Made by a program: the position numbers and the translations under genes. From Elusimicrobiota bacterium (GTDB lineage Bacteria > Elusimicrobiota > Elusimicrobia > UBA1565), in NCBI GenBank assembly GCA_043827405.1, contig JBDRPD010000105.1, positions 51,295-115,294 of the forward strand: 64,000 nt of DNA. Reading direction: 5' to 3'. Shown here piece by piece: positions 9,115 through 33,322 of the stretch. The notes beneath the pieces are model-generated. The model searched no databases. It had not been told where the DNA came from and worked only from the letters and a program-made list of their open reading frames with translations. How positions within the stretch are numbered: the stretch's first letter is position 1; every line of letters starts with the position of its first letter.

Positions 9115-9115
9115 C

Positions 9116-10786: not shown

Positions 10787-11566
10787 ATGAATGAACGATT
10801 TCTCTCCACGGGCCAAGCAGCGAAAATTTGCTCCGTCACCAGGGATACTGTTCTTAAGTGGATCAAGCTCGGCAAGATCGACGCCATCCAAACTCCGGGC
10901 GGGCATTACCGGGTCAACCGCATCAGTCTAGACCCATATCTATCCAGCGATAAACCCGTCGCAGCGCTCCAGCCTGCTGATAAGCATGTCTCCTTCTGTT
11001 GGGAATACCATGCCAAGGAAGGCGAGATCGGTCATGACTGCCGCAAGTGCATGGTGTTTAAATCCCAGGCGCAGAAGTGCTATCTGATGGCCGGCCTCGG
11101 CGAGAAGGGCGGGCATGTGGGCGTGCACTGCAAGGACAACTGCTACGAATGCGAGTACTTCCGCTTCATTAATGACTCGGTGCCTAATGTCCTGCTGATC
11201 ACCGACAACGAGGACATGATCAAAAGGATGCAGGCGCGTACTTTGGACCGCATGATTCTCCGGGTCGCCAGCTGCGAATACGACACTTCCGCCATGGTCC
11301 ATGATTTCAAGCCGGACTTCATCATCATCGATGATTCCCTGATCGGCGGCAGCCCGGATGGGCTGTGCCGGCACCTGATAAAGGACCCGCGGGTTCATGG
11401 GGCGCAAATCATTTTAGCCGTGCCGGAGGGGCGCAAGCGGGACACGCTGCTGGAAGGCGTATGCGCCTCAATGGTCATGCCGTTTAGCGTAGATCAGATG
11501 GAGGAGAGCTTTGACCGGCTCAGAAGAAGCCTGTGGGGTACCCGCAGGCCGCCGGCGCAGAATTGA
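10787..11566 (+). CDS. Excisionase-type (HTH_17) DNA-binding protein with a 7-Cys module and a degenerate receiver domain
   Basis: LSTGQAAKICSV...KWIKLGKI.A.QTPGGHYR; CW..CxxC..CY..C..CxxC; receiver-like C-terminus (KPDFIIIDD) lacking the conserved KP. Confidence 0.8.
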   Translation: MNERFLSTGQAAKICSVTRDTVLKWIKLGKIDAIQTPGGHYRVNRISLDPYLSSDKPVAALQPADKHVSFCWEYHAKEGEIGHDCRKCMVFKSQAQKCYLMAGLGEKGGHVGVHCKDNCYECEYFRFINDSVPNVLLITDNEDMIKRMQARTLDRMILRVASCEYDTSAMVHDFKPDFIIIDDSLIGGSPDGLCRHLIKDPRVHGAQIILAVPEGRKRDTLLEGVCASMVMPFSVDQMEESFDRLRRSLWGTRRPPAQN

Positions 11567-11583
11567 TCCGTGATTGGAGAGTT

Positions 11584-12114
11584 ATGATGCTAAAAGAGCC
11601 CAAGATCAGCAATACGAAGTTAACCCTTGTTAAGGGCGATGTGACCGACACGGACGCGGACGCTTTTGTGTTTTACGCCCGCAACGACTTGCAGCTGGGT
11701 TCCGGCTACGGCACGGCGATTACCCTGAGAGGCGGCCCCGGCATCAAGAAGGAGTTGGACGCGATCGGCAGGGTGGCGACGGGCAAGGCCGTGGCGACTG
11801 GTGCCGGTGAGATGAAGGCGAAGGTCATCATCCACGCCTGCGGACCCAAGTTCCAGGAGGAGGACGAGGAGAAAAAGCTGCGCGATACCATGCAGTCTTC
11901 CCTAAAATGCGCCGATGAGAAGGGCGTGAAGACGCTCGCATTCCCCCCCATGGGCTCAGGCTTCTACGGCATCCCGCTGGACATGTGCCGCAAGGTCATG
12001 ATCGAGGAGATCCGGAAGCACCTTGAAGGCAAGACTTGCCTCGAGGAAGTCCGGATCGTCGTGCCGGACCCGAGAGAAGAGGGGCCTTTCGGCGAGGCCA
12101 TCAAGAGCCTCTAA
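11584..12114 (+). CDS. Macro domain protein
   Basis: KGDVT..DADA, ATGAGEMKAKVIIHACGP and LAFPPMGSGFYG. Confidence 0.85.
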   Translation: MMLKEPKISNTKLTLVKGDVTDTDADAFVFYARNDLQLGSGYGTAITLRGGPGIKKELDAIGRVATGKAVATGAGEMKAKVIIHACGPKFQEEDEEKKLRDTMQSSLKCADEKGVKTLAFPPMGSGFYGIPLDMCRKVMIEEIRKHLEGKTCLEEVRIVVPDPREEGPFGEAIKSL

Positions 12115-12135
12115 AGGCTTCCGAGGAGAGAAACT

Positions 12136-12846
12136 ATGCAAGAAATGAGTGGATTGCTGCATTTTGCGGAAACACGGCTGCAGGAGGCCGCCTTGGTCTG
12201 GATGGCCTGCGTGTACGCCTTCAAGATCCGGTGGCTGCTGAGCTTTAAGGACGGCAAGGACGGGTCCATCGCCACGGGTATGGGCGCGGTGGACAAGGAG
12301 ACGGGCAAGTGGTACTCGATGGCCAACATCGTCATGCCGTGGGCCATGGAGAGCACCCGGAAGAACCCCTTCTTCTACCTCCAATTCGTGCTCTTCCATC
12401 TGGGAGTGGTGGCGTCGATCAGCATGTCCTTCGTTATCCCGTACATGCCCTTCCTGCTGAAAAACGCCCTGGTGGTCAAGGTCATCCAAGGGCTCTGCGC
12501 CACGGCCTGCGTCATCGGCATCGGCCGGATGATCCGGCGCATCGTCAGACCGGTTATGCGGCTGATCAGCACTCCGGATGACTACTTCTCGCTGGCCCTC
12601 TTGACCGTGTGGTTCGCCGTGGCGACGCTGGCGGCGCCCAACGACATCAGCGGCGGCGAAGGGATCATGCTGACCTACTTCTTCATGACCGCGTTCTTTC
12701 TGATCTACGTCCCCTTCAGCAAGATATCGCACTACCTGTACTACCCGTTCACCCGGTTCTGGATCGGACGCGCGCTCGCCAAGCGCGGCGTCTACCCCCC
12801 GGTGAAGGGTCCCGACCAAGTGGCGAGCAAGTACGCCGAGGTATAA
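12136..12846 (+). CDS. NarI/TmcC/HmcE-like cytochrome b membrane anchor
   Basis: About 5 TM helices; FH in TM2, RRI.RP.MRLISTPDDY and PFSKISH. Confidence 0.8.
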   Translation: MQEMSGLLHFAETRLQEAALVWMACVYAFKIRWLLSFKDGKDGSIATGMGAVDKETGKWYSMANIVMPWAMESTRKNPFFYLQFVLFHLGVVASISMSFVIPYMPFLLKNALVVKVIQGLCATACVIGIGRMIRRIVRPVMRLISTPDDYFSLALLTVWFAVATLAAPNDISGGEGIMLTYFFMTAFFLIYVPFSKISHYLYYPFTRFWIGRALAKRGVYPPVKGPDQVASKYAEV

Positions 12847-12850
12847 GACC

Positions 12851-14593
12851 ATGAACGACACGAAAACGAGATCACATAAGGCCAAGAAGTTCCTGGAGCG
12901 GCTGCCGATGAAGCTCAACCGGCAGATCGTGGGCTCGCTCGCGGGATGCGTGCACTGCGGCATGTGCACCGACTCCTGCCACTATGTGCTGGCCAACCCC
13001 GACGATCCGACCTTCGCGCCGGCGCACAAGGCGGACCAGCTGCGCAAGATCTTCAAGCGCCACATCGACTGGACGGGGAAGGCGTTTCCCTGGTGGGTAA
13101 GCGCCAAGAGTGTGTTTACCGATGAGGACCTCGAGACCCTTAAGGACATCGCCTTCGGCAAGTGCACCAATTGCCGGCGCTGCACCTTCAACTGTCCGAT
13201 GGGCGTCGACTTCGCGACCGTCAACCGCACCTTGCGCGGCCTCCTGGTCCACGTCGGCGTCATGCCCGAAGGCGTCTCCGTGGTCAGCAAGGACCAATGG
13301 GAGATCGGCAACCAGATGGGCGTGCTCAAGGAAGACTACCTGGAGACGATCGACTGGATGTCGGATGAGCTCGCGGGCGAGGTCGGCGACGAGAAGGCGC
13401 GCATCCCGATCGAGAAGAAGAACGTCGACGTCATGTACACCATTAACCCCCGCGAGGTGAAGTACGACCCGCGCTCGATCTCCGACGCCGCCAGGATCTT
13501 CTGGGCGGCCGGCGAGAGCTGGTGCATGCCGGAAGAGGGCTGGGACATGACCAACTTCGGCCTATTCTCCGGCGACGACGACCTCGGCGGCACCGTGGCC
13601 AAGCGGGTCTACGACAAGGCGCGGGAGATCAACGCCAAGAAGGTCGTTATCTCGGAGTGCGGCCACGGCTACCGCTCGACCCGCTGCGAGGGCGTGAACT
13701 GGGCGCAGGACAAGAAGCCGGTCGTCATGGAAAGCTCGGTCCTCACCATGCTCGAGTACATCAAGTCGGGCAAGATCAAGGTGGACAAGAGCAGGAACCC
13801 GGGGACCTATACCTTCCATGACTCCTGCAACAACGCCAGAAGCTGCGGGCTGACCGAGGAACCGCGCGAGCTGTTGAGCCTGGTGGTCGAGAATTTCCAG
13901 GAGATGTACCCCAACCGCGCCGAGAACTACTGCTGCACGGGCGGCGGCGGCGCGATGTCGATGTCGGAGTACACGCCGCGGCGGCTTAAGTCGGCGAAGG
14001 TCAAGGCCGACCAGCTCAAGGCCACGGGCGCCAAGATATGTGTGACGTCCTGCCACAACTGCGTGGACGGTCTCTCGGACTGCATCAAGCATTATGAGAT
14101 CGACATGAAGGTGACGCAGCTGGTGAACCTGGTCGCTAACGCCCTGGTCGTCCCGTCGCGGGTCACCCCGCCGGCGGCGAAGGAGCTGGTCCTCGCCGGA
14201 CGCACCATCCTTGTCGTCGACGACGAGCCGGACGCCCTGACGTTCTTCAGCACGGTGCTCTCCGACAACGGCGCCAAGATCGTCGAGCTGTCGGACGGCA
14301 GCGAGGTGCTCAGGAAGGTGAAGGAGCTCAAGCCCGACCTCGTGACGCTCGACATCTCCATGCCGGGGAAGGACGGAGGCAAGGTGCTGGAAGAGCTGCG
14401 CAATGACCCGGAGACCGAATCGGTGAAGGTCTGCATCATTACCGGCAAGCCGGAGCTCAGGAAGCTCATCTACGACCGCCCCGTGCGGCCGCCGGAAGGC
14501 TATCTGGACAAGCCGGTGGACGAGGAGAAGCTGCTGATGAACGTGCGCAAGATTCTGGAGCTCGCGCACGACGAAGCGCCCGTAGCGGCATAA
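12851..14593 (+). CDS. HdrD/TmcB/DsrK-like (Fe-S, CCG-domain) oxidoreductase fused to a C-terminal response-regulator receiver
   Basis: CVHCGMCTDSC, CTNCRRCTFNCP, ECGH, HDSC, CCTGGGG, CHNC; receiver from about 14201 (ILVVDDE, LDISMP, DKP). Confidence 0.88.
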   Translation: MNDTKTRSHKAKKFLERLPMKLNRQIVGSLAGCVHCGMCTDSCHYVLANPDDPTFAPAHKADQLRKIFKRHIDWTGKAFPWWVSAKSVFTDEDLETLKDIAFGKCTNCRRCTFNCPMGVDFATVNRTLRGLLVHVGVMPEGVSVVSKDQWEIGNQMGVLKEDYLETIDWMSDELAGEVGDEKARIPIEKKNVDVMYTINPREVKYDPRSISDAARIFWAAGESWCMPEEGWDMTNFGLFSGDDDLGGTVAKRVYDKAREINAKKVVISECGHGYRSTRCEGVNWAQDKKPVVMESSVLTMLEYIKSGKIKVDKSRNPGTYTFHDSCNNARSCGLTEEPRELLSLVVENFQEMYPNRAENYCCTGGGGAMSMSEYTPRRLKSAKVKADQLKATGAKICVTSCHNCVDGLSDCIKHYEIDMKVTQLVNLVANALVVPSRVTPPAAKELVLAGRTILVVDDEPDALTFFSTVLSDNGAKIVELSDGSEVLRKVKELKPDLVTLDISMPGKDGGKVLEELRNDPETESVKVCIITGKPELRKLIYDRPVRPPEGYLDKPVDEEKLLMNVRKILELAHDEAPVAA

Positions 14594-14609
14594 GCCGCCG
14601 CGGGTCCGA

Positions 14610-14633
14610 CCCGGGAAGCGCGGGCTTCCCGGG
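14610..14633 (+). terminator. Intra-operon hairpin without a U-tract
   Basis: CCCGGGAAGC-GCGG-GCTTCCCGGG, just upstream of the kinase RBS. Confidence 0.45.
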
Positions 14634-14646
14634 CGGGAGCGGATAC

Positions 14647-16053
14647 ATGGACGCGCCTTTCTATCAGCAGTGCTTTGAGGAAATGCCCTGCTATGTGTCC
14701 GTGCAGGACCGCGACTTCCGCATCATCGAGACCAATCGGCGCTTCCGTGAGCATTTCGGCGACGGCGTCGGCGAGTACTGCCACAAGATATATAAGCGGC
14801 GCGACGAGCGCTGTCCCGTCTGTCCCGTGGCGCAGACCTTCGAGGACGGCAATAACCACACCAGCGAAGAGCAGGTGCGGACTTTGGCCGGCGAGCCGGT
14901 CTGCACTCTAGTCAACACCTGCCCAATCCGCGACGACAATGGCGAGGTAGTCGGCGTCATCGAGATGTCGACCGACGTCACTGCGGCCAAGCGGCTGCAG
15001 CGGCAGTTGGAAGAGAGCCAAAAGCTCTATCAGCTGCTCTTCGAGGAAGTCCCCTGCTATATATCGGTGCAGGATCGCGACTTCCGCATCGTGCACGCGA
15101 ACAGTCGTTTCAAGCGGGACTTCGGGCATAAGCAGGGCTACTGCTACGAGATCTACAAGCACCGCAGCGAGCGCTGCCTGGAGTGCCCGGTTGCGGAGAC
15201 CTTCAAGGACGGGAAGGCGCACTACAGTGAAGAGGTCGTGACCTCCGACTCCGGCGAACGGATCAATACGCTCGTCTGCACGGCGTCGATCCGTGACGAC
15301 AACGGAGAGATCGTCCAGGTGATGGAGATGTCGGCCAATATCACTCGCATCCGGCAGCTGCAGGATCAACTGACTTCGCTGGGGCTGCTTGTGGGCTCGA
15401 TCTCGCACGGCGTTAAGGGGCTGCTGACCGGCTTGCGCGGCGGCATCTACATGCTTAAAACAGGTATTACAAAGCATGACGATGAACGGATCGCCCGGGC
15501 CTGGGAGATGGTGGAAGGCAACGAGAGCCGCATTCGCGGCATGATCCACAATATCCTGTACTATGCCAAGGAGCGGGAGCTCAATATCGAGACCATCGAC
15601 GCCGCCAAGCTGCTCGGCGAGGTCTGCGGCGTGCTGCATGATCGGGCCCGGCAGCTCGGGATAACGTTGACGCAGAAGGAAGGGGCTGTCGGCGAACTGG
15701 TCGGCGATTCCAACGCTTTGCATGCGGCGTTGGTCAACCTGGTCGACAATTCCTTGGACGCCTGCCGGGTTGACAAGAGGAAGAGCGAACATGCGGTCGA
15801 AGTCGGAGTCCGGGAGGACGGAAGCGAGGTTATTTTCGAGATCACCGACAACGGCATCGGGATGGACCGGGAAACCCGGGAGAAGGCCTTCAGCATGTTC
15901 TTCTCCTCCAAGGGCACGGAAGGAACGGGGCTTGGCCTGTATATTTCCAATAAGATCGTCCTTCAGCATAGGGGAATGATTTCCATCGAGTCGACTGCGG
16001 GGCAGGGGACTCGTTTTGCGGTAAAAATACCCAGAAATGGAGCGCACGCATGA
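14647..16053 (+). CDS. Cytoplasmic two-PAS sensor histidine kinase
   Basis: Two PAS domains with Cx10CxxCP; H-box SISHGVKG; N-box NLVDNS; DNGIG and GTGLGL. Confidence 0.9.
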   Translation: MDAPFYQQCFEEMPCYVSVQDRDFRIIETNRRFREHFGDGVGEYCHKIYKRRDERCPVCPVAQTFEDGNNHTSEEQVRTLAGEPVCTLVNTCPIRDDNGEVVGVIEMSTDVTAAKRLQRQLEESQKLYQLLFEEVPCYISVQDRDFRIVHANSRFKRDFGHKQGYCYEIYKHRSERCLECPVAETFKDGKAHYSEEVVTSDSGERINTLVCTASIRDDNGEIVQVMEMSANITRIRQLQDQLTSLGLLVGSISHGVKGLLTGLRGGIYMLKTGITKHDDERIARAWEMVEGNESRIRGMIHNILYYAKERELNIETIDAAKLLGEVCGVLHDRARQLGITLTQKEGAVGELVGDSNALHAALVNLVDNSLDACRVDKRKSEHAVEVGVREDGSEVIFEITDNGIGMDRETREKAFSMFFSSKGTEGTGLGLYISNKIVLQHRGMISIESTAGQGTRFAVKIPRNGAHA

Positions 16054-16427
16054 GCAAGAAGATATTGGTGGTGGATGACGAGCCCGATACGGTGTCCTTT
16101 TTAACGACGTTGCTGGAGGACAACGGCTATGTTACGTGTTCGGCTAACGACGGCGATGAGGCGAGAGGCGTGCTGAAGAGCGAGAAGCCGGATCTGATTA
16201 CCTTAGATATCGAGATGCCGAACAAGTCCGGAGTGCGGCTCTACCGGGAGATGAAGGAAGCTCCTGAGCTGAAAGACATCCCCGTGCTTTTTGTCTCCGG
16301 CCTGGGGGACTTCAAAATCTTCATGCAGAAGATCAAGCCCCTGCCGGATCCCGCGGCCTTTGTTGAGAAGCCGCTGGATGAGGAGCGGGTGCTGCAGGCG
16401 GTAAAGAAGGCGCTGCTTCCCGCTTAG
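16050..16427 (+). CDS. Single-domain response regulator
   Basis: ILVVDDE, LDIEMP, EKP; no output domain. Confidence 0.9.
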   Translation: MSKKILVVDDEPDTVSFLTTLLEDNGYVTCSANDGDEARGVLKSEKPDLITLDIEMPNKSGVRLYREMKEAPELKDIPVLFVSGLGDFKIFMQKIKPLPDPAAFVEKPLDEERVLQAVKKALLPA

Positions 16428-16432
16428 GTCCG

Positions 16433-17983
16433 CTATTTCTTTTCTTTATGGCAGGCGGTGCAGCCGTTGAGTTTGGTTAGTCCCATCTGCTCATGGCACC
16501 TCATGCACTGCAGATGGTAGGCGCCCTTAAGTCCAGTCATCCCCATATTTCCCGCGAAGGACCTGCCGTGGCAGTTGCGGCAGGCGAGGGGCTTCATTTC
16601 TTTGGGCGTGCTGTGGTGACAGCCCATGCACAGCGTGTCCTCTCCGCCGTGGAAGCTCTTTGCCAGCGCGCTGTCGCGGGCGTTTTTGCGCAAGGTATCG
16701 ATGATCTTACGATGCGGGAAGGTTACCTGCTCGTATTTGTCGGAGAGGTGGTCGATGGTGATGTTCTTTGGGATGTCGCCGTCTTTCCAGGAGAGCTTTC
16801 CGTAGCTCTTTTCTTTCAAGAACTTCCCGATATTCTCTGGGCGCGTCGCCGCGATCAGCGGTGAGCTGGGCGGCGGTCCTGAGTGGCATACGCTGCATTC
16901 GCCTTTTCCTAGGGGCTCCTGCTTCATGATAGAGTGGCATCCCGAGCATCCGGGCCGTTGTTTAATTTGGTTGTGGCAGCCGACGCAGCTGTGGCTCGAT
17001 GTCGGGGCGTGCATGGAGCGGGCGAGAGTGACGCCCCCGCCTTTTTTATCTCCGAAGAGGGTATGGCAGTCCCGGCATGCCTGCATGTTTTCGTGATGAC
17101 ATGCGCGGCATGAGGAAGTTGTTTCTTCATGCTGTTTGTGGTCGAATGGGACCGTGTTGATTCGGGCATGCCGCGGGTCGGCGGCGCGCACGAGCGCGGC
17201 GTCCGGCTGACCGCTTTTCAGCCGCGGGACCTTGGCCGGCCTTATAAAGGCAAGCTGGCTGTCCGCATCATGACAGCCCGCGCATGATTTCGGCCCAGAG
17301 TCCATATTTTTCTCGGTCTTTTCAAGATGGCAGCCGACGCATTTGCGATGCGAGACGCGTTTCATGGATCTTCGGTTGCCCTCGGATGTTCGTCGGTGGC
17401 AGTCGCGGCAGGATCTTTCCCGCCCCTTAATATAGACGAGCTTTTGCTGCCGCTCGTCGAGCTCGTGATGACACAGCTCGCATTTCTTGGCGCTCGCTTT
17501 GACGTGACGGTAATGCAGGGATTTGTCGAGCCTTATCTCCCGCCGCGAGGAGACCGTCCGCGGCCGCAGCTGATGGCAGACGCCGCAGTCGCTGGTCACG
17601 ACGGGGCCGGTTTCCCTTCCGGCCGCGGCCTGCTCTTTATGGCAGGCGATGCACTTGCCGTGGTAGAGGTTCTGCAGCGCCTGCATATCGGCGCCCGGCA
17701 GATCTACGAACTGGGGAATAAATAATCCTTGGTCGTCCTTTTGGTGACAGGCATCGCAGCTTTTTCCCTGCTTATCGAGAGCCTTGGTGTGCATGTCATG
17801 CAGGAATGGAACGGCTGGCCGCTTAAGCTCATGGAACTGGGCAATAGAGTCGATCGATATAATATCGGGTCTGGCAGCTTGCGCTTTCTCTTCACTGCCG
17901 CTTGCGGCGCCGAAGAGGATGGCGCTCGCTATGAACGCGCCGAAAACGACGGTTGCTTTGCGTTGTGTTTCGTTTTTCCCCAT
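16433..17983 (-). CDS. hmcA: Hexadecaheme cytochrome c HmcA
   Basis: 16 CxxCH motifs counted; signal peptide; class III cytochrome motifs (V.F.H..H, GLKGAYH.QC). Confidence 0.92.
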   Translation of the reverse strand: MGKNETQRKATVVFGAFIASAILFGAASGSEEKAQAARPDIISIDSIAQFHELKRPAVPFLHDMHTKALDKQGKSCDACHQKDDQGLFIPQFVDLPGADMQALQNLYHGKCIACHKEQAAAGRETGPVVTSDCGVCHQLRPRTVSSRREIRLDKSLHYRHVKASAKKCELCHHELDERQQKLVYIKGRERSCRDCHRRTSEGNRRSMKRVSHRKCVGCHLEKTEKNMDSGPKSCAGCHDADSQLAFIRPAKVPRLKSGQPDAALVRAADPRHARINTVPFDHKQHEETTSSCRACHHENMQACRDCHTLFGDKKGGGVTLARSMHAPTSSHSCVGCHNQIKQRPGCSGCHSIMKQEPLGKGECSVCHSGPPPSSPLIAATRPENIGKFLKEKSYGKLSWKDGDIPKNITIDHLSDKYEQVTFPHRKIIDTLRKNARDSALAKSFHGGEDTLCMGCHHSTPKEMKPLACRNCHGRSFAGNMGMTGLKGAYHLQCMRCHEQMGLTKLNGCTACHKEKK

Positions 17984-17998
17984 AAAGATGCCGTTGCG

Positions 17999-18142
17999 TT
18001 AAGAGCCGCTTTCGTTTCCTTCGCTGTTGGTTAATGCCCGGTAAAAGAAAAAGAACCCGACCACGATCGTTACGGCGAGGGCATAGATTACCGCTTCCGT
18101 ATGGTAAAAGAATTCATGCAGCGTATGTATTTCGCCTGCCAT
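17999..18142 (-). CDS. hmcD: HmcD-like small membrane subunit (47 aa), missing from the ORF track
   Basis: MAGEIHTLHEFFYHTEAVIYALAVTIVVGFFFFYRALTNSEGNESGS; starts 1 nt after the hmcC stop; single TM. Confidence 0.75.
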   Translation of the reverse strand: MAGEIHTLHEFFYHTEAVIYALAVTIVVGFFFFYRALTNSEGNESGS

Positions 18143-18143
18143 A

Positions 18144-20371: not shown

Positions 20372-20385
20372 CAAAGTCCCTCTTG

Positions 20386-21711: not shown

Positions 21712-21737
21712 GGTCTTTCTCCGCGCATGGAATCTCT

Positions 21738-22385: not shown

Positions 22386-22389
22386 ATTC

Positions 22390-23631
22390 TTATTGGCTCC
22401 TTGCGACCTCTCTTACGTATTTCCCGTTCTCGATGTAGCGGAGCAGCAGGCTGTCCCCTCGGGGGCTGAAGACAGGCTCCCAGAGTCTTTCATAGCTATT
22501 GTCCCGCAATTCACCGTCAACGACGAGATGAAACCGGCCGTCCTTTTCCGCCTTGGCGGCTACATGCTTCCCGCAGGGACTGAACACCGGGTCCCATATC
22601 ATGTCGAATGTCTCCGCCCAGGCCTTTCCGTCGACTGCGATCGACCAGACATCGTTGTGCTTGACAATGGCGGCGACGCTCCGGCCGTCCGGCGAAAAGA
22701 CGGGCGCCAATACCATGTCGCTGAAAAGTTTCTCCCAGGGGTGATCGTCGACGGCGATCGTCCAGCGTCCGAACTGCGGCGCGACGACCGCCGCAAGCCG
22801 TGAGCCGTCGGGACTGAACCTGGCTTGCCAGAGCTGCCCGTAGCCCCCCCAGATCGGCCGGCCGTCTTCGGCCAGCGTCCACTTGCCTTGGTGCTTTACC
22901 GGCGCGATGGCCGACGAGTCGTCGGGCCTGAAGAGGGGTTCCCATACGCCGCCGAAGCTCTCAGACCAGGGCTGATCGTCCGCGGCCGCGGAATATTCGC
23001 AGATGCCGGTCCGAATCTCGACTGCGACTTTCGAGCTGTTCGGGCTGAAGACCGGCTTCCAGGTATTGACGTATTTCCTGTCCCAGACGCTTCCGTCCAT
23101 CGCCACGGACCAGACGCCTTTGAAGAAGCCGGGAACATCGGCTTCTTTAAGCGCTTCGACCTGCACGGTGGCTGCGGTGCGCTTTCCGTCGGGGCTAATG
23201 CAGTAGTCGCGAATTGATAGAAAGCCGGTATCCCAGGGTTTGCCGTTGAGCGCGATCCCATACATGTCGTCGCGCTTGTAGATGACGGCGAGGCCTTCGC
23301 CGTTGGCGCTCAGTTTTGGCTCCCAGGCGTATTCGAACTTTTCCGTCCACGGTTCCTTATCGACGGCCAGAGTCCATTGATCCTCGGCCTTAACCAGCGC
23401 GATCAGCTTGCCGTTGGGCAGATACTTCAGGTTCCAGAGCATTTCGTAGGAACCGGGCCAGAACTCGCCGTTGACCCAGGCGGTGAATTCGCCGTCCTCA
23501 TTCTTTACCGTCGCCGCGATATGTTCTCCGTCGGGGCTAACGACAAACTGCTGGATCTTAGGGTGTTCCTTCAGGGCCTTGCCGACATCGGCGATGATGT
23601 TTTTTTCGCGGTTCCAGTTCCAGTCTTCCAT
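22390..23631 (-). CDS. tmcD: TmcD Trp-rich beta-propeller subunit
   Basis: Repeated W.P.FSPDG..AA.V....W..AVDG..W units; adjacent to tmcC. Confidence 0.82.
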   Translation of the reverse strand: MEDWNWNREKNIIADVGKALKEHPKIQQFVVSPDGEHIAATVKNEDGEFTAWVNGEFWPGSYEMLWNLKYLPNGKLIALVKAEDQWTLAVDKEPWTEKFEYAWEPKLSANGEGLAVIYKRDDMYGIALNGKPWDTGFLSIRDYCISPDGKRTAATVQVEALKEADVPGFFKGVWSVAMDGSVWDRKYVNTWKPVFSPNSSKVAVEIRTGICEYSAAADDQPWSESFGGVWEPLFRPDDSSAIAPVKHQGKWTLAEDGRPIWGGYGQLWQARFSPDGSRLAAVVAPQFGRWTIAVDDHPWEKLFSDMVLAPVFSPDGRSVAAIVKHNDVWSIAVDGKAWAETFDMIWDPVFSPCGKHVAAKAEKDGRFHLVVDGELRDNSYERLWEPVFSPRGDSLLLRYIENGKYVREVARSQ

Positions 23632-23634
23632 GGG

Positions 23635-24165
23635 TTATATCGCGCCGGGGGGCGGAGTCTCCTCTTCCTCTAGAATACTTTTCGCTGTTATGTACAAGTC
23701 TTCCGCACGGGAGCGGTCCGATATCAGGCGCTTGATATCGTTGGTACGGCGGGAGCCGAGCCGATAGACGACGCAGCTGCGGCATTCGTTTCCTTTGGGG
23801 CTGCAGTTGCCTCCACGGATCATCCAGCAGGGCTTCGCGGTGTCGGTTTTCGCGGCGCAGCTGCTGCGCTTGGTCTTCGAGCAGCGTACCAGATCCCAGC
23901 ACGGCAGCAAGGCTTGCAGCCTACGGATGCCTTCCATGTTCATCCCTTGGTCCTTGATCATGTGCTGGATCGTCTTGACGCGCGCGATGTCCTCGCGGGA
24001 GAAAAGGCGGTGGCCCGACGGCATGCGGTGCGGGATAAGGAGCCCCTCCACTTCGTAATTTCTAATCGATGATACGGAAACGCCTGTTTTTTCCGCCAAA
24101 GTGCCGATCGATAGGAGGGGTTCTGAGAGTTCGGCGTGAGGATCGGCCATGTGAAATACTATCAT
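23635..24165 (-). CDS. MerR-family regulator with a 7-Cys (two CW) C-terminal domain; alternative start 24150
   Basis: SIGTLAEKTGVSVSSIRNYE.EGLL; PCW...C...C...PCW...C...CRSC. Confidence 0.88.
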   Translation of the reverse strand: MIVFHMADPHAELSEPLLSIGTLAEKTGVSVSSIRNYEVEGLLIPHRMPSGHRLFSREDIARVKTIQHMIKDQGMNMEGIRRLQALLPCWDLVRCSKTKRSSCAAKTDTAKPCWMIRGGNCSPKGNECRSCVVYRLGSRRTNDIKRLISDRSRAEDLYITAKSILEEEETPPPGAI

Positions 24166-24282
24166 AAGCAGTAGAGTAAATCTACAAAGCAGGACATAGA
24201 TATTATGCAGCCGGCATGGGATATCCTGATATCAGAGTATAGATGCCGGATGCGGCGGCGTGAACGAGGGACTGCAGAGTAC

Positions 24283-24786
24283 TTAGTCGGACAGGAGCTT
24301 GAGGACCTTCTTTAGCTTCTTGTCATCAGCTGTTTTGAGCCGGTCCTGGATTTGCTCCCGTAGGCCGTGCTCTTCGCCGCTCGTCGGCAAGCCGAGGGAC
24401 TTCCGAATGGCGCTAATGTATGCCGGCGGTTTGACCGGCTTTTCCAGGAAGGTGATGGGGTTATTCTTGGCTTCCTGCTGCAGTTCGCGCAGGCTATCGC
24501 TGCCGAACTCATCCTTGCCGTGCGCGGTAACGACGACGACGGGGATGTCTTTCCGGTCCTTGTTTTTCTGTATATACCGGTAGAACTTCAAGCCGGACAT
24601 TTTCGGCATGACGAGGTCGAGCGAAATCGCGTCGGGCTTCTTTTCGGTCATGCGCTCGAGCGCCTGCTTGCCGTTGCTCGCGACCATGACGTCGAATCCC
24701 GCGTCTTCTAGGATCGTTCGCAGATAGAGCTGCACATCCGGCTCATCGTCCACGATTAAAATGGTCTTGTCGCTCGTGTCGCTCAT
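24283..24786 (-). CDS. Response regulator receiver with a short C-terminal helix
   Basis: ILIVDDE, LDLVMP, EKP; ATG after GGAGG. Confidence 0.88.
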   Translation of the reverse strand: MSDTSDKTILIVDDEPDVQLYLRTILEDAGFDVMVASNGKQALERMTEKKPDAISLDLVMPKMSGLKFYRYIQKNKDRKDIPVVVVTAHGKDEFGSDSLRELQQEAKNNPITFLEKPVKPPAYISAIRKSLGLPTSGEEHGLREQIQDRLKTADDKKLKKVLKLLSD

Positions 24787-24799
24787 GATATCCTCCAAC

Positions 24800-26257
24800 T
24801 TATTTCCCCGTTTGTTTGGGGAGCCGCTTACGGGGGAACTCAAGGGTGAAAACCGAGCCGCCGCCGTCAGCTGTTTCTACGGTAATTTCACCGCCATGCT
24901 GTGATACGATCTTTCGGGTGACGAGAAGTCCGAGCCCCGTACCTTGCCCGGAGCCTTTGGTCGTAAAAAAATTTGTGAAGATCTTCTTCTTCACTTCGTA
25001 ATCCATTCCGCAGCCGTTGTCTTCGACCCGGTAATAGATTGTATCGTTCCTTTCCCGGCATGACAATACTACTTTTAGCTTCTTTTTATCGCTCACGAGG
25101 CAGGCGTCGATCGCGTTCGATACGAGGTTGGCCAGCGAAGTGTGAATCCCTTCGGCGTCCAAGGAGGCTTTCTTCAGCGCTTGCGGATAATCTCCCGTCA
25201 AAGTGATCCCGGAGCGCTTAGCCGTTTCTTCATACAGCGATACGACTTCCTCGGCAATCTTTACGGGATCTACCTGCCGGACGGTGGGCTCCGTGCCCTT
25301 GGCGAAGCTTAGGAACTCCGCGACGAAGGAAGATATCTTTGTGATATTGCTTTCAAGCATCTTCCATCCTTCCTTCGTCAGGGTTTGGTCATCTCGTTTA
25401 AGGCCGGAATTGACGACGTACATCCCTCCCTCGAGGCCCATAATAATGTTCTTGATGCCGTGCGACAGCCCGGCGACCGTTTGCCCCACGGCAGCAAGCC
25501 GCTCTGCTTCCAGCTTCTCGTGCTCCGCCTTTTCAAGCTTGGTCTTTAGATCCAGGACTTCGGAGACGTCGTGCGCGATCTCGATGACGCTGGCGATGCC
25601 GTCGCCGTCCCGCCGCAGGGGCGCCGTCGTTACCATGTAGTGCGATTTCTTCCCCTTCCTGTCGATGCCTTCCTGCAGCGTGCTGTGCGTTTCTCCGGTC
25701 TCGAAGGCTTTGATCGAGGGGCAGTTCGCGCAGGGGTTCGCGCTCGCTTTATACATCTCGTAGCAGTGGGTCTTGCCCTTCCTGCCGAACTTGTCGTCAA
25801 AAAATTTATTGGACTTGATTATCTTGAGATTGCGGTCAATGACGGTGATGTAGCATGGGACATTCTCGAGTAGAAAACTGTGTTCCTGGGCCATGGCCAC
25901 GCGTTCTGAGACATCGCTGGACATCTCGACCACGAACGGGATCCCGCCCTTATCGTCTCGGAGCGGGAAGAAACGGACGCGGTAGTACGTCGCTCCCCCG
26001 TTCTTACTTGTGCCTTGCTCTTCGGAAGTTCGAACTTCTCCGCTCTCGAATGTCGCGAGCGCCGGGCACTTGGAGCACTGCCGTTTTCTTTTTTTGTAAA
26101 CCTGGTAGCATTTCTTCCCCTGCCAAGGGCCGTAGGTAGCCTCGAAAAGAGCGTTTGCCTTGATGATGTTGAATCCCTTATCGATTACGGCGATCTGCAT
26201 CGGGACCTGATCGAATAGACCCTCCTGAATCCAGTCGCTAATGCGGGACGGGGTCAT
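24800..26257 (-). CDS. Cytoplasmic two-PAS sensor histidine kinase
   Basis: Two Cx10CxxCP PAS domains; H-box GLSHGIKN; NLVSNA, DNGCG and GTGLGL. Confidence 0.9.
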   Translation of the reverse strand: MTPSRISDWIQEGLFDQVPMQIAVIDKGFNIIKANALFEATYGPWQGKKCYQVYKKRKRQCSKCPALATFESGEVRTSEEQGTSKNGGATYYRVRFFPLRDDKGGIPFVVEMSSDVSERVAMAQEHSFLLENVPCYITVIDRNLKIIKSNKFFDDKFGRKGKTHCYEMYKASANPCANCPSIKAFETGETHSTLQEGIDRKGKKSHYMVTTAPLRRDGDGIASVIEIAHDVSEVLDLKTKLEKAEHEKLEAERLAAVGQTVAGLSHGIKNIIMGLEGGMYVVNSGLKRDDQTLTKEGWKMLESNITKISSFVAEFLSFAKGTEPTVRQVDPVKIAEEVVSLYEETAKRSGITLTGDYPQALKKASLDAEGIHTSLANLVSNAIDACLVSDKKKLKVVLSCRERNDTIYYRVEDNGCGMDYEVKKKIFTNFFTTKGSGQGTGLGLLVTRKIVSQHGGEITVETADGGGSVFTLEFPRKRLPKQTGK

Positions 26258-26661
26258 CGGCGGTCTCCGCGGGCGAATACTGAATCCAGGAAATCAATAA
26301 ACCGTTTGACATCGATGGGCTTTTCAAAAAAGGCTTCCGGTTCGGGGATGTCCGGGTCCGGCAGATGCCTTCTGAAGTCCTGCTTGAAGCCGTAGGCGAT
26401 GCCGCCGATGCCGCTGATGATGGCAATGGGGATGTCCTTGGTGACTTCATTCCTCTTTAGGTCTTTATACAGCGAAAGCCCCGATCTTTTCGGCATCATG
26501 ATATCCAGGCAGATTAGGCCGGCGTGTTCCTTCTTGGCCAAGGCCAAGCCTTCGAATGGGTCGGAGGTGGATATCGCTTCGTACCCGTTGTCCTGCAGCA
26601 GCGTGGTCAGATAGAGCAGGATATGGGCTTCGTCGTCGACGAGCAGGACTTTTCGGCTCAC
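26254..26661 (-). CDS. Single-domain response regulator
   Basis: LLVDDE, LDIMMP, EKP. Confidence 0.88.
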   Translation of the reverse strand: MSRKVLLVDDEAHILLYLTTLLQDNGYEAISTSDPFEGLALAKKEHAGLICLDIMMPKRSGLSLYKDLKRNEVTKDIPIAIISGIGGIAYGFKQDFRRHLPDPDIPEPEAFFEKPIDVKRFIDFLDSVFARGDRR

Positions 26662-26724
26662 AGTACACTCCGCGACCGCGGGCGGGCTAAAGCGGCCGGA
26701 TTCAGCATCCTAACAGAGTCCGTA

Positions 26725-27114
26725 TCAGCCGATCAAGTCTTTAATTGTTTTAACCAATGCGTCACGGTCAATGGGCTTGGGTATGAAGCCGTCTGGAGGC
26801 GGTACCTTCTTCCGGCTGGAGATGAACTTCTTGAAGCTCTCGGGATCATTGGCGTAGCCGGTGACCGCGGTCACGACGACGATGGGAATGTCCTTGAGCG
26901 AATCATCTTCTCTGAAGGCGCGATACGCCTTGATTCCCGACTTCTCCGGCATGGTGATGTCCAGCGTGATCAAGTCCGGTCGGTCCTTGCGGGCCTGATC
27001 AAGCGCATCATCCACCTTGTCGGCGAGGATGGTCGTGTAGCCGTTGTCTTTGAGCAGGGTATCCAGATAGGTCAGGACATCCTTCTCGTCATCGATAACT
27101 AGGATCTTTTTCAT
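26725..27114 (-). CDS. Single-domain response regulator
   Basis: MKKILVIDDE, LDITMP, PKP; ATG after GAGG. Confidence 0.88.
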   Translation of the reverse strand: MKKILVIDDEKDVLTYLDTLLKDNGYTTILADKVDDALDQARKDRPDLITLDITMPEKSGIKAYRAFREDDSLKDIPIVVVTAVTGYANDPESFKKFISSRKKVPPPDGFIPKPIDRDALVKTIKDLIG

Positions 27115-27124
27115 GCGCACCTCT

Positions 27125-28726
27125 TTACTCTTCCCATTTAATAAACGGCTGCTTGATGTCAACCATGGCGTTTACGATGAGCTCGACGAGGCCGCCATAG
27201 ATGATGTTGGAGCGCTCCTTACACTTATAGTACTCCAGGATGTCGCGGAACTGACCCTTGCAGTTTGAGCAGGGCGCGCAGATATACTTCTTGACCTCGG
27301 GCCCCGGCTGGTCGCTGAAGGCTCCGAGCACCTGTTTGAGCTTCTTCCTGCCGCCGACGGCAATGCGCCAGTTCGCGAAGTTGTTGCCGCTCATGATCGC
27401 GAAGCCGCTGCCGCCGCCGCAGCAGTAGTTCTCGACGCCATGCGGCGTCATCTCGCGAAACTGCGGGCAGAGGTAGCGCAGGATGCGCCGCTGCGGCTCG
27501 ACGATTCCCAGGTTGCGGGTGATATTGCAGGGATCATGCAGCGTCACCGGGAAATCGTTCTTCTTGGGGTCGAACTTGATCTTGCCGCTGAAGACGATCT
27601 TTTCGAGCAGCGGCAGACAGCTCTCCCGGTTGACGTTCATGTCGCCGACGAGGATGCGGTCGGCGATAGTCATCATGGCCTTGTGCTGGTGACCGCACTC
27701 GCCCATGACGACCTTCTTGACCTTCAGCTTCTTGGCCGTGCCCATATGCTTGAGGGCGATGCGTGCCAGCTGCATGTCGTCGTAGAACAGCCCGTAGTTC
27801 ACGCCGTCGTAGGACGGCTCAGCGGAAGAGAGCGTCCAGTCGATGCCGGCGGCGTTGAGGATGATGGCGAAGGCCGCAGGGTTCTCCGGCCAGGCCATAA
27901 TCTCGCCCGCGTTATGGATCAGGAGCACCTCGGCCCCTTCCTTGTCCCACGTGGTTTTGGCGTCGAGCCCGCTCTCTTCCGAGAAGTCCTCATCGACGAA
28001 CTCGATATTATCCTTGACCACCATGGGCGTCATGCCCGTCGACGAGCCGACCTCGAGCTGCTGTACCGTCCCCTTTTCATGCAGCTCCTTGGGCGCCCAG
28101 CCGAGCTCCTGGCTGAAGAGCTTGCGCAGCTCATGGTTGATGAGGCCGTTGTCGACGCCCATCGGGCAGGCTTGGGCGCAGCGCCGGCACATGGTGCAGC
28201 GGTAGGCGAGCTCGTAGAGGCGGGTGATGGTCGTCCAGTTGAGGTCGATGTCGCCGTGCTTGAACTTGGCCAGCCATTGCGGCCCGTCCTTGACGTACTT
28301 GTTGACCAGGCGCCTCCACACCTCGGAGCGAAACGTCGGCCGGTAGAGGTCGTTGTTGCCGCTCTCCTCGTAGACGGGGCAGGCGTCATTGCAGGTCTGA
28401 CATTTCGCGCAGTACTCCAACGAGAGCGTCAGGGGCTGCTGAAACGTCCAATTGTTTTCCTTGCTGAGGAGTTTCCCCAGGCCGCTGCGAAACTTCTCAA
28501 CCATCTCCTGCTTCTCTTCCTCGCTTTTGGGCTGCGGCAGGCTGCAGGCAACCACGCCGTCCAGGTTGCAGACGATACTCTCTTTTGTTTCAGGCTTGAT
28601 CTCCTTCCAGACCGGCTCGTCCTTGTCATAGGGCGGCGGCAGCGGGATCAGGTCCTGCATGCTGACGCTGGTCAACGGCGCGGAGCCGTTCTTGCCGAAA
28701 TCTTCTACTCTAAGAGCTTTAGGCAT
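27125..28726 (-). CDS. DsrK-like (Fe-S, CCG-domain) protein
   Basis: CAKCQTCNDACP, CTMCRRCAQACP, GECGH, HDPC, CCGGGSG and PCSNCK. Confidence 0.85.
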   Translation of the reverse strand: MPKALRVEDFGKNGSAPLTSVSMQDLIPLPPPYDKDEPVWKEIKPETKESIVCNLDGVVACSLPQPKSEEEKQEMVEKFRSGLGKLLSKENNWTFQQPLTLSLEYCAKCQTCNDACPVYEESGNNDLYRPTFRSEVWRRLVNKYVKDGPQWLAKFKHGDIDLNWTTITRLYELAYRCTMCRRCAQACPMGVDNGLINHELRKLFSQELGWAPKELHEKGTVQQLEVGSSTGMTPMVVKDNIEFVDEDFSEESGLDAKTTWDKEGAEVLLIHNAGEIMAWPENPAAFAIILNAAGIDWTLSSAEPSYDGVNYGLFYDDMQLARIALKHMGTAKKLKVKKVVMGECGHQHKAMMTIADRILVGDMNVNRESCLPLLEKIVFSGKIKFDPKKNDFPVTLHDPCNITRNLGIVEPQRRILRYLCPQFREMTPHGVENYCCGGGSGFAIMSGNNFANWRIAVGGRKKLKQVLGAFSDQPGPEVKKYICAPCSNCKGQFRDILEYYKCKERSNIIYGGLVELIVNAMVDIKQPFIKWEE

Positions 28727-29606
28727 TCTTCGTCTCCTCCTTCTTCGGCATGTCCGACGTCGCGATGTCGACCCAGTTCTTCTTGCCGTCGGCGCCCAGA
28801 TGCGGCGCCGACCAGGTCACGGTCTGTCCCAGCAGCTGCTTGACCTCTTCCTCCATCGCCGGATTCATGGGCTCGTCGTTCCAGCGAATCTCATGGTAGA
28901 AGAAGTATTTGGCCAGGAAGTGCATCATGTAGGAAAACGGCAGGTAGAGCAGGAAGAACATCCCCGCCGCGATATGCGCCGCGATCGCGCCGCTGACCGC
29001 CATCCCGGTGTTCCCGGAGAAGAAGGCCTTGATAAATCCCGTCATCTCGGCGGTGAAGCTGGTCGTAAAAACGGCGTAAGCTCCGGAAACGAATACCGCC
29101 GCCAGCACCAGCAGGTTGAAAAAAGACGCCGGCGTGGCGAAAGGCTTAAGCTTGGGGTCGAGCAGGCGTTTCAGGAAGAGCCCCACGGTTCCGATCGCGC
29201 CCAGGATATAGCCCGCCGTTCCCAGCAGCAGCGCCAGGCGTTCGGCCGGCGGGAAGGCAAAAGCCGCGAGAAGCAGTGCGCCGGTCATGGCGGTCAGCAG
29301 GTAGAGCCCGAAATGGAACGGGAAGGAGAATATCCACAGCGGGCGGTTATGCTCCCAGACGCCTTTCAGGAAAACGATTTCCTTGAACATGTAGAGGCCT
29401 TCGCTGAGCAGCGATTTTTCGCGCGGCTTGGTCCACCACTCAAACTCCTCCAGGTAGGATCCGCCGTAATGGGCCTTGCCGGCCTCATGCGGTACCGGAG
29501 CGAGCTCCCAGCGCAGGTGCATCGGCATCATCTTGATGCTTAGACCGCGATATACGAAACCGATCGCGAAGACGGCTGTTGCGATGTAGCAGAATATAAG
29601 CAGCAT
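28719..29606 (-). CDS. DsrM/NarI-like membrane cytochrome b
   Basis: PMHLRWELAPVPHE...GGSYLEE..WW, FPFHFG and PFSYMMH; overlaps the DsrK-like gene. Confidence 0.8.
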   Translation of the reverse strand: MLLIFCYIATAVFAIGFVYRGLSIKMMPMHLRWELAPVPHEAGKAHYGGSYLEEFEWWTKPREKSLLSEGLYMFKEIVFLKGVWEHNRPLWIFSFPFHFGLYLLTAMTGALLLAAFAFPPAERLALLLGTAGYILGAIGTVGLFLKRLLDPKLKPFATPASFFNLLVLAAVFVSGAYAVFTTSFTAEMTGFIKAFFSGNTGMAVSGAIAAHIAAGMFFLLYLPFSYMMHFLAKYFFYHEIRWNDEPMNPAMEEEVKQLLGQTVTWSAPHLGADGKKNWVDIATSDMPKKEETKNA

Positions 29607-30122
29607 CTACCCTTCCTCCTCTTTCTTGCTGTCTAGTTTGTCCAGGAACGCCCGTACTTCCTTGCTTATGTCGTCGAGGCCTGAGCGGCCGTAAACGATG
29701 CCCTTGATGTCCTCGGTGCACTGTGAGCCGAAACGATAGACGACGCAGCTGCGGCATTCATTGCCCTTGGGGCTGCAGTTTCCGCCCTTAATCATCCAGC
29801 AAGGCTTCGAGCTGCCCTTATAGGCCGCACACGCCCCACGTCTCTTCTTGCTGCATTCGGCGACTTCCCAGCAAGGCAGGAGAGCCTGCAGCCGACGAAT
29901 GCCCTCCATGTTCAGCCCCAGTTCCTGAATCATGTGGCGGATGATTTTGATGCGGTCCATGTCCTCATGCGAGAACAGGCGGTTTCCGGTGGGCGTGCGA
30001 TAGGGGATGAGTAGTCCTTCGGCCTCGTATTTGCGGATGGCGGAGACCGATAGGCCGGTTTTCGCGGCCAGCGTTCCTATGGATATAACCGGATCGGTGA
30101 GTGTATTGCGCGGCTTTCCCAT
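29607..30122 (-). CDS. MerR-family regulator with a 7-Cys (two CW) domain; paralog of 23635-24165
   Basis: Same HTH and near-identical KPCWMI.GGNCSPKGNECRSCVVYR segment. Confidence 0.88.
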   Translation of the reverse strand: MGKPRNTLTDPVISIGTLAAKTGLSVSAIRKYEAEGLLIPYRTPTGNRLFSHEDMDRIKIIRHMIQELGLNMEGIRRLQALLPCWEVAECSKKRRGACAAYKGSSKPCWMIKGGNCSPKGNECRSCVVYRFGSQCTEDIKGIVYGRSGLDDISKEVRAFLDKLDSKKEEEG

Positions 30123-33282: not shown

Positions 33283-33322
33283 TATATATTAGCTCCTTGT
33301 CTCGTTTCCCTGTGGTAGCGGC

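Follow-up and report, generated by a model that had tools for sequence, protein, structure and literature searches.

The 64,000-nucleotide stretch of DNA analyzed here, referred to as the window, came from an Elusimicrobiota bacterium (GenBank assembly GCA_043827405.1, contig JBDRPD010000105.1, positions 51,295–115,294). Among the sequencing runs listed as containing it there was no RNA run; two were groundwater DNA runs, one of which may be the source of this DNA. Three operons filled positions 10787–30122 of the window, operon 1 on the forward strand and operons 2 and 3 on the reverse strand, as judged from open reading frame (ORF) calls and from Pfam and NCBIfam matches. An earlier annotation made from the letters alone (the sequence-only reading) had proposed that each operon starts with a helix-turn-helix (HTH) regulator bearing a seven-cysteine (7-Cys) module and contains a cytochrome b paired with an iron-sulfur protein of the CCG type. 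The ORFs were found exactly at the positions that it gave for the operons (10787–16427, 24165–16433, and 30122–24283), their families were confirmed by Pfam and NCBIfam, and a cytochrome-b/CCG pair was identified in each operon: M1-K1, TmcC/TmcB, and M3-K3, respectively. Its listing of kinases and of receivers without DNA-binding output was also right, but it had missed a macro-domain gene, a receiver fused to K1, and the Tmc-Hmc hybrid character of operon 2. The three operons were flanked by dsrAB-dsrC-dsrTMKJOP on one side and by aprBA on the other. The window opened with DsrP (308–1468); qmoC, dsrA, dsrB, dsrC, dsrT, and dsrMKJO lay upstream of it on the same contig, and AprA and AprB were encoded at 31414–33775. 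All four DsrK-like genes of the genome were located in this one locus, and dsrC was present in a single copy, as the one DsrC-family gene of the genome.

Related loci were collected with a profile of the MerR-type 7-Cys regulators, a family of at least 448 relatives. One genome was taken per species, the best 80 of 90 loci were kept, and these were annotated with the window's proteins; individual loci are cited by L numbers. They came from metagenome-assembled genomes (MAGs) labelled Planctomycetota, Gemmatimonadota, Ignavibacteriota, Zixibacteria, Elusimicrobiota, Riflebacteria, Acidobacteriota, Fibrobacteria, and others. The regulator was directly followed by an M3-K3 pair in 61 of the 80 loci and by a macro-M1-K1 set in 8, so that one or the other followed it in 68, and three loci had no room downstream of the regulator. 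In L014, one of these three, and in L026, the K1 module was divergently adjacent to the regulator. There was room but no such pair in L050, L053, and L065, and L083 gave only a weak HTH match; divergent CCG pairs lay downstream of the regulator in L021 and L081 and an R1-type gene in L006, and in L082 the regulator was cut at the locus end. K1-type genes occurred in 32 loci, K3-type genes in 59, and both in 23. The sequence-only reading had staked itself on the gene combination recurring in other genomes, and the regulator-pair adjacency in 68/80 loci bore this out. Furthermore, dsrA was detected above the cut-off in 28 of the 38 genomes holding such loci, four more had fragments or dsrB only, and a dsr, apr, or qmo homolog lay within 10 kb in 37/80 loci. 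We conclude that this locus represents a genuine accessory unit of the Dsr pathway that is conserved across genomes.

K1 of operon 1 (12851–14593, forward strand) consisted of a CCG iron-sulfur protein and a canonical receiver at residues about 451–569 (PF00072, 69.5 bits). The enzyme part had two [4Fe-4S] ferredoxin motifs, an ECGH motif, and a C-x34-CC-x38-CxxC arrangement. In the receiver, D457, D458, and D501 were invariant and position 531 was Thr or Ser in 27/27 relatives, and K554 was invariant in 37/37. The best 120 relatives of K1 all carried CCG and receiver parts, had at least 71% identity, and were named "response regulator" or "Fe-S oxidoreductase/CheY-like". Judged by its domains, K1 is a response regulator that carries a DsrK/TmcB-like CCG enzyme as its second domain. 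Among solved structures, the enzyme part was closest to EtfD of M. smegmatis (PDB ID: 9ojn), a membrane-bound Fe-S/CCG oxidoreductase (profile E-value 3.2e-16 over positions 101–450; Foldseek E-value 3.3e-10). Unlike K1, EtfD has no receiver and belongs to another pathway, with 19% identity. It works in electron transfer from electron-transfer flavoprotein (ETF). The membrane partner M1 (12136–12846, forward strand) was HmcE/TmcC-like, scoring 57 bits with the NCBIfam HmcE model and 50 bits with the TmcC model; the scores of both K1 and M1 were far below the cut-offs of all named families. Two histidines of M1, H88 and H199, were invariant in 28/28 members of its family, and the other two of the four haem-ligand positions that TmcC and DsrM have in common were occupied by Tyr or other residues; the NarI-type di-haem pattern of two histidines in helix 2 and two in helix 5 was thus absent from M1. 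We take each histidine pair to bind a haem by analogy to NarI. A macro-domain protein (11533–12114, forward strand; PF01661, 85.6 bits; likely start near 11584) preceded M1, and most of the listed related loci also had a macro-type ORF 5' of M1-K1.

In operon 3, M3 (28719–29606, reverse strand) was a NarI-like cytochrome b of the DsrM2 type (PF02665, 25.2 bits, cut-off 22.9), and K3 (27125–28726, reverse strand) was a DsrK-like CCG protein of the DsrK2 type with ECGH and C-x2-C-x2-C motifs. H98 and H229 of M3 were present in 61/61 sequences, H86 in 80%, and H211 in 57%. With the DsrK model NF045796 (cut-off 400), the scores of K3, K1, and the TmcB-type protein of operon 2 (K2) were 318.7, 233.2, and 193.4 bits, respectively, all below the cut-off, and neither operon 1 nor operon 3 encoded DsrJ, DsrO, or DsrP. 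The best 120 relatives of K3 showed 70–85% identity, were named "(Fe-S)-binding proteins", and came from MAGs, with no cultured organism among them. The M3-K3 pair resembled the DsrMK paralogs and the core of DsrMKJOP, having a NarI-like cytochrome b and a DsrK-like CCG protein with two ferredoxin motifs, ECGH, and one CCG motif, and it was located in the dsr island as are dsrM2/dsrK2 paralogs. Organisms with both DsrMK and DsrMKJOP are on record (PMC10504309). Second dsrMK copies are described next to dsrAB/dsrC in the accessible part of the report on Ca. Thermonerobacter (PMC6338057), and that of a preprint on peatland Acidobacteria calls them "not uncommon", citing Pereira et al. 2011 (bioRxiv 10.1101/197269). 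The 7-Cys MerR regulator, the operator candidate, the receivers, and the kinase that accompanied M3-K3 are not mentioned in those parts of the two reports. The sequence-only reading had taken two of the modules for sensory or phosphorylation-gated variants. K1 indeed had the anatomy of a phospho-gated enzyme, but nothing marked M3-K3 as sensory: its cofactor motifs, including the cluster cysteines and the Cys-Gly-His motif, were all kept, and it matched the dsrM2K2 paralogs of the literature. The reading of operon 3 as a sensory variant thus found no support and was rejected.

The ECGH motif was found in K1, K2, K3, and the genome's own DsrK, and was invariant in 37 K1-type and 21 K3-type sequences; K1, K2, and K3 likewise all had the C...CC...CxxC motif. 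We equated it, by motif only, with C329/H331 of A. fulgidus DsrK; in a DsrK cryo-EM preprint (10.64898/2026.08.25.746951), the Cys and His of this motif are described as functionally important, and Cys, His, and Asp as strictly conserved, with the Asp (D500 in A. fulgidus) replacing a cysteine of Hdr. At the corresponding tail, K1, K2, K3, and 8 further accessory CCG proteins had CxxC, in contrast to C-x-C-A-I-D (CxxD) in the genome's DsrK, the assignment being made by alignment to the genome's own DsrK and not to a solved chain. The accessory enzymes were therefore DsrK-like but failed to show the Asp feature of DsrK. The sequence-only reading had suggested a phylogeny of the three CCG proteins against DsrK, TmcB, HmcF, and HdrD. 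In a FastTree phylogeny of 109 rows, the K1 clade (32 rows) was sister to TmcB (5 rows) with a support of 99, and the K3 clade (60 rows, support 100) was placed apart from the genome's own DsrK. The tree contained no reference rows of HdrD or of Desulfovibrio HmcF/TmcB, and placement relative to these families relied on NCBIfam scores.

Operon 2 encoded, in the direction of transcription on the reverse strand, a regulator (R2), TmcD (22390–23631; NF045725, 523.3 bits, cut-off 440), the cytochrome b TmcC (M2; 21738–22385; NF045723, 278.9 bits, cut-off 240), the TmcB-type CCG protein K2 (20386–21864, true start probably near 21735; NF045724, 722.9 bits, cut-off 735), the periplasmic Fe-S subunit HmcB (19316–20374; NF045715, 456.6 bits, cut-off 420), the NrfD-type membrane subunit HmcC (18144–19316; NF045714, 636.5 bits, cut-off 550), and an HmcA-like multihaem cytochrome c (16433–17983; NF045713, 537.2 bits, cut-off 400). 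Neither TmcA nor HmcD, HmcE, or HmcF was detected by NCBIfam within 16433–24165; the operon reached 199.8 bits with the HmcE model (cut-off 275) and 363.2 bits with the HmcF model (cut-off 750), and a full six-subunit Hmc complex was accordingly absent at the NCBIfam cut-offs. The order tmcD-tmcC-tmcB-hmcB-hmcC-hmcA was also found in two MAGs labelled Elusimicrobiota (L004 and L005), and TmcDCB in two Gemmatimonadaceae loci (L044 and L047); an R2-type regulator at the head of the hybrid was found in the window only. Operon 2 thus shared TmcD, TmcC, TmcB, HmcB, HmcC, and HmcA homologs with the Tmc and Hmc complexes of Desulfovibrio, and the lone receivers of operons 1 and 3 gave their best match to the DVU0259 family model of Desulfovibrio (86–130 bits, cut-off 160). 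Presumably, receiver-type regulators also adjoin tmc and hmc in D. vulgaris (rrf1/rrf2; DVU0258–DVU0260). The D. vulgaris regulator mapping paper (PMC3333781) makes no mention of DVU0258–0260 or tmc. Unlike the Desulfovibrio complexes, operon 2 mixed both types, lacked TmcA and HmcD, and had a MerR-7Cys gene at its head, and operon 1 had a receiver fused to the CCG enzyme, a membrane partner with one histidine pair, and a macro-domain gene in the unit. Tmc without TmcA is described for Seep-SRB1 (PMC10553843).

The regulators of operons 2 and 3, R2 (23635–24165, likely start 24150) and R3 (29607–30122), both on the reverse strand, were MerR-type proteins with a 7-Cys tail, that of R3 having an eighth cysteine. 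They showed 60% identity to each other and matched PF13411 (MerR_1; cut-off 21.6) at 64.0 and 60.7 bits, respectively. The seven cysteines of this tail were invariant in 32/32 relatives, and the eighth was nearly invariant. R1 (10787–11566, forward strand) consisted of an HTH of the HTH_17/excisionase type, a 7-Cys module, and an atypical receiver-like C-terminus, and its seven cysteines (C71, C85, C88, C98, C115, C119, and C122) were invariant in 21/21 R1-type relatives. The C-terminus of R1 had no Pfam match and a weak match to a PhoB model over residues 135–238. In this domain, D182 at the acceptor position was invariant in 21/21, the Thr position was mostly Ala, and the position of the conserved Lys was Lys in 10/21 relatives and Met in the window. 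Because the profiles of the MerR-type and R1-type regulators aligned along both HTH and Cys module (hhalign probability 96.4%, E-value 1.2e-9), the claim of the sequence-only reading that the same 7-Cys module occurs three times holds despite the different architecture of R1, with the amendment that R1 has another HTH subtype and a receiver-like domain. The three regulators as plain triplicate paralogs were ruled out by this difference in architecture.

R2 and R3 resembled SoxR and other redox- or metal-sensing MerR proteins in having a MerR HTH, a C-terminal Cys-bearing sensor, and a palindromic candidate operator at the promoter. Their matches to the SoxR model TIGR01950 (cut-off 116.9), however, were confined to the HTH region and reached 35.5 and 39.3 bits, and their tail has seven or eight cysteines, unlike SoxR, which has four. 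The tails of R3 and R2 each had two C-W motifs and matched positions 2–75/76 of the 80 positions of NF045718, the model of the uncharacterised two-CW domain (cut-off 35), at the sub-threshold scores of 14.8 bits (E-value 0.029) and 13.1 bits (E-value 0.093), and the R1 tail gave no match to this model. A search of the ESM Atlas with the Cys tail returned one match at 0.76, in a MerR cluster, which we regard as a lead.

A perfect 18-bp palindrome, CTATAC-N6-GTATAG (30138–30155), was located upstream of R3, where it overlapped the −10 of a promoter-like site (30177–30149), and it was the only site with 0 or 1 mismatch in the 64-kb window. The exact motif CTAYAC-N6-GTRTAG was present in 15 of 80 regulator upstream regions, versus 1 of 390 windows drawn at random from these loci, and the motif within two mismatches in 63/80 versus 6/390, and it was kept across phyla. 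These counts make the palindrome a candidate operator of the MerR-7Cys regulator. Upstream of R1, a sigma-70-like promoter, TTGACA-17-TAAAAT, was recognized by consensus match only (10707–10735, forward strand; 11/12 matches), and was the best of the promoter-like sites. A 14-bp direct repeat (ATAAAGTCAATAAA) occurred in two exact copies, spaced 20 bp, between it and the R1 start (10738–10771, forward strand) and could be the operator of R1. The totals of the promoter and terminator scan were not above those of shuffled sequence (9 promoter-like sites versus 7.1, and 18 terminator-like sites versus 19.0); three of the promoter-like sites were placed ahead of the three regulators, and only these positions were notable. 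Operons 1 and 2 were convergent, the stop codons of REC1 and HmcA being only 5 bp apart (16427–16433), and no convincing terminator was found between them.

Operons 1 and 3 each encoded a soluble histidine kinase, HK1 (14647–16053, forward strand) and HK3 (24800–26257, reverse strand), which were 34% identical. HK1 consisted of two PAS domains, HisKA, and HATPase, and its PAS domains contained C15, C45, C56, and C59, and C137, C166, C177, and C180, respectively, plus a conserved histidine each; the four cysteines per PAS were conserved in 83–100% of 35 kinases. A conserved Cys set near residues 45–60 of a cytoplasmic PAS is also a feature of OrpR and NreB. The PAS of OrpR from D. vulgaris binds a redox-sensitive [4Fe-4S] cluster via C52, C61, and C65 (PMC8359166), and the [2Fe-2S] protein NreB of Staphylococcus/Bacillus is reported to sense sulfide (PMC13478379). 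HK1 differed from OrpR (C52-x8-C61-x3-C65) in its spacing, C-x29-C-x10-C-x2-C, and in its doubled PAS with a putative cofactor site, and the output, unlike that of OrpR and NreB, was a histidine kinase with receivers lacking a DNA-binding domain.

Four single-domain receivers accompanied the kinases: REC1 (16050–16427, forward strand; PF00072, 79.9 bits; nearest NCBIfam family DVU0259, 130 bits, cut-off 160), REC3a directly after K3 (26725–27162, reverse strand, likely start 27114), REC3b (26254–26661, reverse strand; 57.6 bits), and REC3c (24283–24843, reverse strand; 87.4 bits). Together with the K1 C-terminus, they matched PF00072 at 57.6–87.4 bits (cut-off 30.2), the lone receivers kept the DD, D, and K residues, and no canonical receiver of the three operons carried a DNA-binding output domain. 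In total, six receiver-type domains and two kinases were present, and the Pfam scan detected no Hpt protein. An HK1-type kinase was found in the locus of 30/30 receiver-bearing K1 genes versus 0/2 receiver-less ones, both of the latter from Planctomycetota. As in the window, a receiver gene was located at most 400 bp after K3 in 16 related loci. The K1 fusion, together with this receiver after K3, reads as a Rosetta stone for a contact between K3 and a lone receiver. When K3 and REC3a were co-folded, the score was 0.42, versus 0.00 for the best of three controls, with a partner predicted local distance difference test (pLDDT) value of at least 81 and agreement of the runs in at least 82% of contacts. 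This is weak support; the mark applied is one that 116 of 157 solved complexes and 2 of 215 mismatches attained, and passes at 0.60 or below comprised only 18 of the 157 solved complexes and both mismatches. In L004 (18–4846), L007 (15–4319), and L021 (11975–17726), an HK3-type Cys-PAS kinase and two lone receivers followed HmcB/HmcC-like (NrfCD-type) pairs; therefore, this kinase-receiver set may accompany membrane redox modules more generally.

With a probability of about 0.45, that is, slightly under even odds, we consider the three operons to encode three self-regulated accessory membrane redox complexes of a laterally moving dissimilatory sulfite/sulfate-reduction island, in which transcription is controlled by cysteine-cluster sensors and the enzymes directly by a phosphate switch that the kinases drive. 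An iron-sulfur cluster or a metal would be bound by the 7-Cys tail, or the tail would carry out thiol chemistry, and the regulator would sit on the CTAYAC-N6-GTRTAG palindrome. Since this palindrome overlaps the −10 of the regulator's own operon, we propose that redox or sulfur status governs each operon through autoregulation. In the manner of OrpR and NreB, a redox- or sulfide-sensitive Fe-S cluster would be held by the four cysteines of each PAS domain of HK1 and HK3, and the kinases would phosphorylate the K1-fused receiver and the lone receivers. By analogy with the K1 fusion, K3-type enzymes may be docking partners of the lone receivers, and phosphorylation may open or close a cytoplasmic thiol- or DsrC-reducing route; such phospho-gating is plausible for K1 in view of its domain arrangement. 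M3-K3 would take electrons from menaquinol and TmcDCB-HmcBCA from periplasmic cytochromes, and M1-K1, which has one histidine pair for haem, would have the strongest regulatory role among them. The circuit postulated in the sequence-only reading, by which electron flow would be switched between the complexes, is partly supported, through the plausible phospho-gating of K1. A wider form of this proposal is a portable control unit for sulfite respiration comprising K1 as a phosphorylated response regulator with a heterodisulfide-reductase-type output, receivers docking on its unfused paralog K3, and a new 7-Cys sensor domain on MerR-type and excisionase-type regulators that controls transcription via the palindrome, the whole moving with dsrAB across a dozen bacterial lineages; it is doubtful in our estimation.

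Several observations weigh against the proposal of three self-regulated complexes. Because the regulator was used as bait and the best 80 of 90 loci were kept, the locus counts are conditional on the regulator; the kin compared are not independent, and co-transfer of the island can give co-occurrence in the absence of a functional link. The region upstream of R2 contained the palindrome only with three mismatches. For the Cys tail, no known metal-site family was matched, the two-CW model remaining below its cut-off, and the AlphaFold2 model of R3 (32 sequences) had a mean pLDDT of 62, and about 45–56 in the Cys tail, which was too poor for a fold search. In the K1 model, with a predicted template modelling score (pTM) of 0.55, the position of the receiver versus the enzyme was not fixed, and the K3-REC3a complex prediction was a weak pass only. 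As the M1 family lacks two of the four histidines, a NarI-type wire from quinol to the cytoplasm is doubtful for operon 1. The CxxC in place of the strictly conserved Asp of DsrK indicates that the substrate may not be DsrC-trisulfide, and the single copy of dsrC also belongs on this side of the balance.

The single histidine pair of M1, seen in 28/28 sequences, is also what would be expected if operon 1 served signalling instead of electron transfer, with M1-K1 only reading the redox state of a haem/Fe-S centre, of quinone, or of DsrC. The K1 receiver would then be a phosphate sink or partner tuning the path from HK1 to REC1 and R1, and the output would be transcription and not gating. In keeping with such a role, R1 joins its HTH and 7-Cys module to a receiver-like domain in which the acceptor-position Asp is invariant, K1 and M1 scored far below every named family's cut-off, and six receiver-type domains were present for two kinases with no Hpt protein. 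On the other hand, the cluster cysteines and ECGH of K1 were all kept in 27 to 37 sequences of approximately 70% identity across phyla, which indicates selection on catalysis. Moreover, many R1-type proteins have a receiver-like domain without the conserved Thr and Lys, and in related loci the K1 module was mostly headed by a receiver-less MerR-type regulator or had no adjacent regulator. We regard this explanation as unlikely.

Improbable to a similar degree is that DsrC is not the substrate of the accessory pairs and that they act instead on, for example, a small disulfide, polysulfide, an oxidised protein thiol, or a DsrC-like paralog, in redox homeostasis or in defence of the sulfite-reduction machinery against oxygen or sulfide stress. 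The difference between CxxC of all the accessory CCG proteins and CxxD of the genome's DsrK favors such a substrate, and MerR-type regulators classically answer stress. In addition, related loci encoded their own DsrC-like proteins beside a further DsrMK-like pair, and therefore partner specificity may differ between modules. However, the modules were tightly linked, physically and phyletically, to dsrAB, dsrC, and aprBA, and the genome offers only one DsrC-family gene. CxxC is likewise present in TmcB, which the literature regards as a route to DsrC (PMC10553843).

The DsrC-like proteins just mentioned belong to an extra module, absent from the window, that occurred in many loci of Planctomycetota and Gemmatimonadota (L007, 4337–9631; L051, L012, L018, L020, L023, L027, L037, L072, and L015). 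It began with a divergent pair of R1-type regulators (HTH, 7-Cys module, and receiver-like domain) beside DsrC-like, DsrM-like, and DsrK-like genes, the DsrK-like protein being 32–36% identical to the genome's DsrK and having a CxxC tail, and it included a second, longer DsrC-like gene. In L015, DsrJ-, DsrO-, and DsrP-like genes were also included.

The distribution of the locus pointed to lateral movement. In a sample of 151 genomes of the window's phylum, only this genome had dsrA, and apart from it a single genome matched the K1 profile, weakly and over no more than the enzyme part. The five nearest relatives (96–98% complete) lacked dsrA, and genomes of the same family at 97% completeness lacked both dsrA and K1. 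Phyla were interleaved inside the K1 and K3 clades of the FastTree phylogeny, and this, together with the absence of dsrA from near relatives, suggested that the island moved laterally as a block; on these grounds, the dsr/apr island looks laterally acquired. The same interleaving and absence, which make lateral transfer of whole blocks plausible, are the basis for supposing that ordinary transcription-level regulators, kinases, and receivers merely ride on a mobile dsr island and that the K1 receiver has no gating role, but this is very unlikely, given that the regulator-to-pair order was kept in 68/80 loci despite differing wider neighbourhoods, the operator palindrome was kept across phyla, the fused receiver covaried with the kinase (30/30 versus 0/2), and the K1 receiver residues were invariant.

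For the supply of electrons to DsrC, sulfate reducers have a choice among the DsrMKJOP, DsrMK, Tmc, and Hmc routes, and what is known of the regulation of these complexes comes almost entirely from Desulfovibrio. Our literature searches turned up no account of the CCG-receiver fusion, of the 7-Cys regulators, or of the operator. The locus gives testable handles on this regulation in the form of a regulator family with a candidate operator, a kinase with a candidate metal-binding PAS, and an enzyme with its own phospho-receiver. Should phosphorylation gate the enzyme, this would be a respiratory complex under the post-translational control of a two-component system. The unit was common to uncultured dsrAB-bearing Planctomycetota, Gemmatimonadota, Ignavibacteriota, Zixibacteria, Elusimicrobiota, Acidobacteriota, Riflebacteria, and Fibrobacterota, lineages that are thought to be important for sulfur cycling in sediments and groundwater.

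Two further sets of genes bordered the three operons. Directly 5' of operon 1 were DsrV/DsrW-like sirohaem genes (8473–10648), encoding a precorrin-2 dehydrogenase-like protein and a fused uroporphyrinogen-III methyltransferase, and DsrW-like genes were present in 15 of the 80 related loci. Between aprA and R3, a CxxCxxCC-domain protein of 285 amino acids was encoded (30198–31055, reverse strand; PF03692, 44.5 bits). A protein with 59–66% identity was found near the MerR-7Cys gene in five related loci (L005, L063, L068, L074, and L078); its gene was directly upstream of the MerR-7Cys gene in four of the five, and it lay beside aprBA in L005, L063, L068, and L078.

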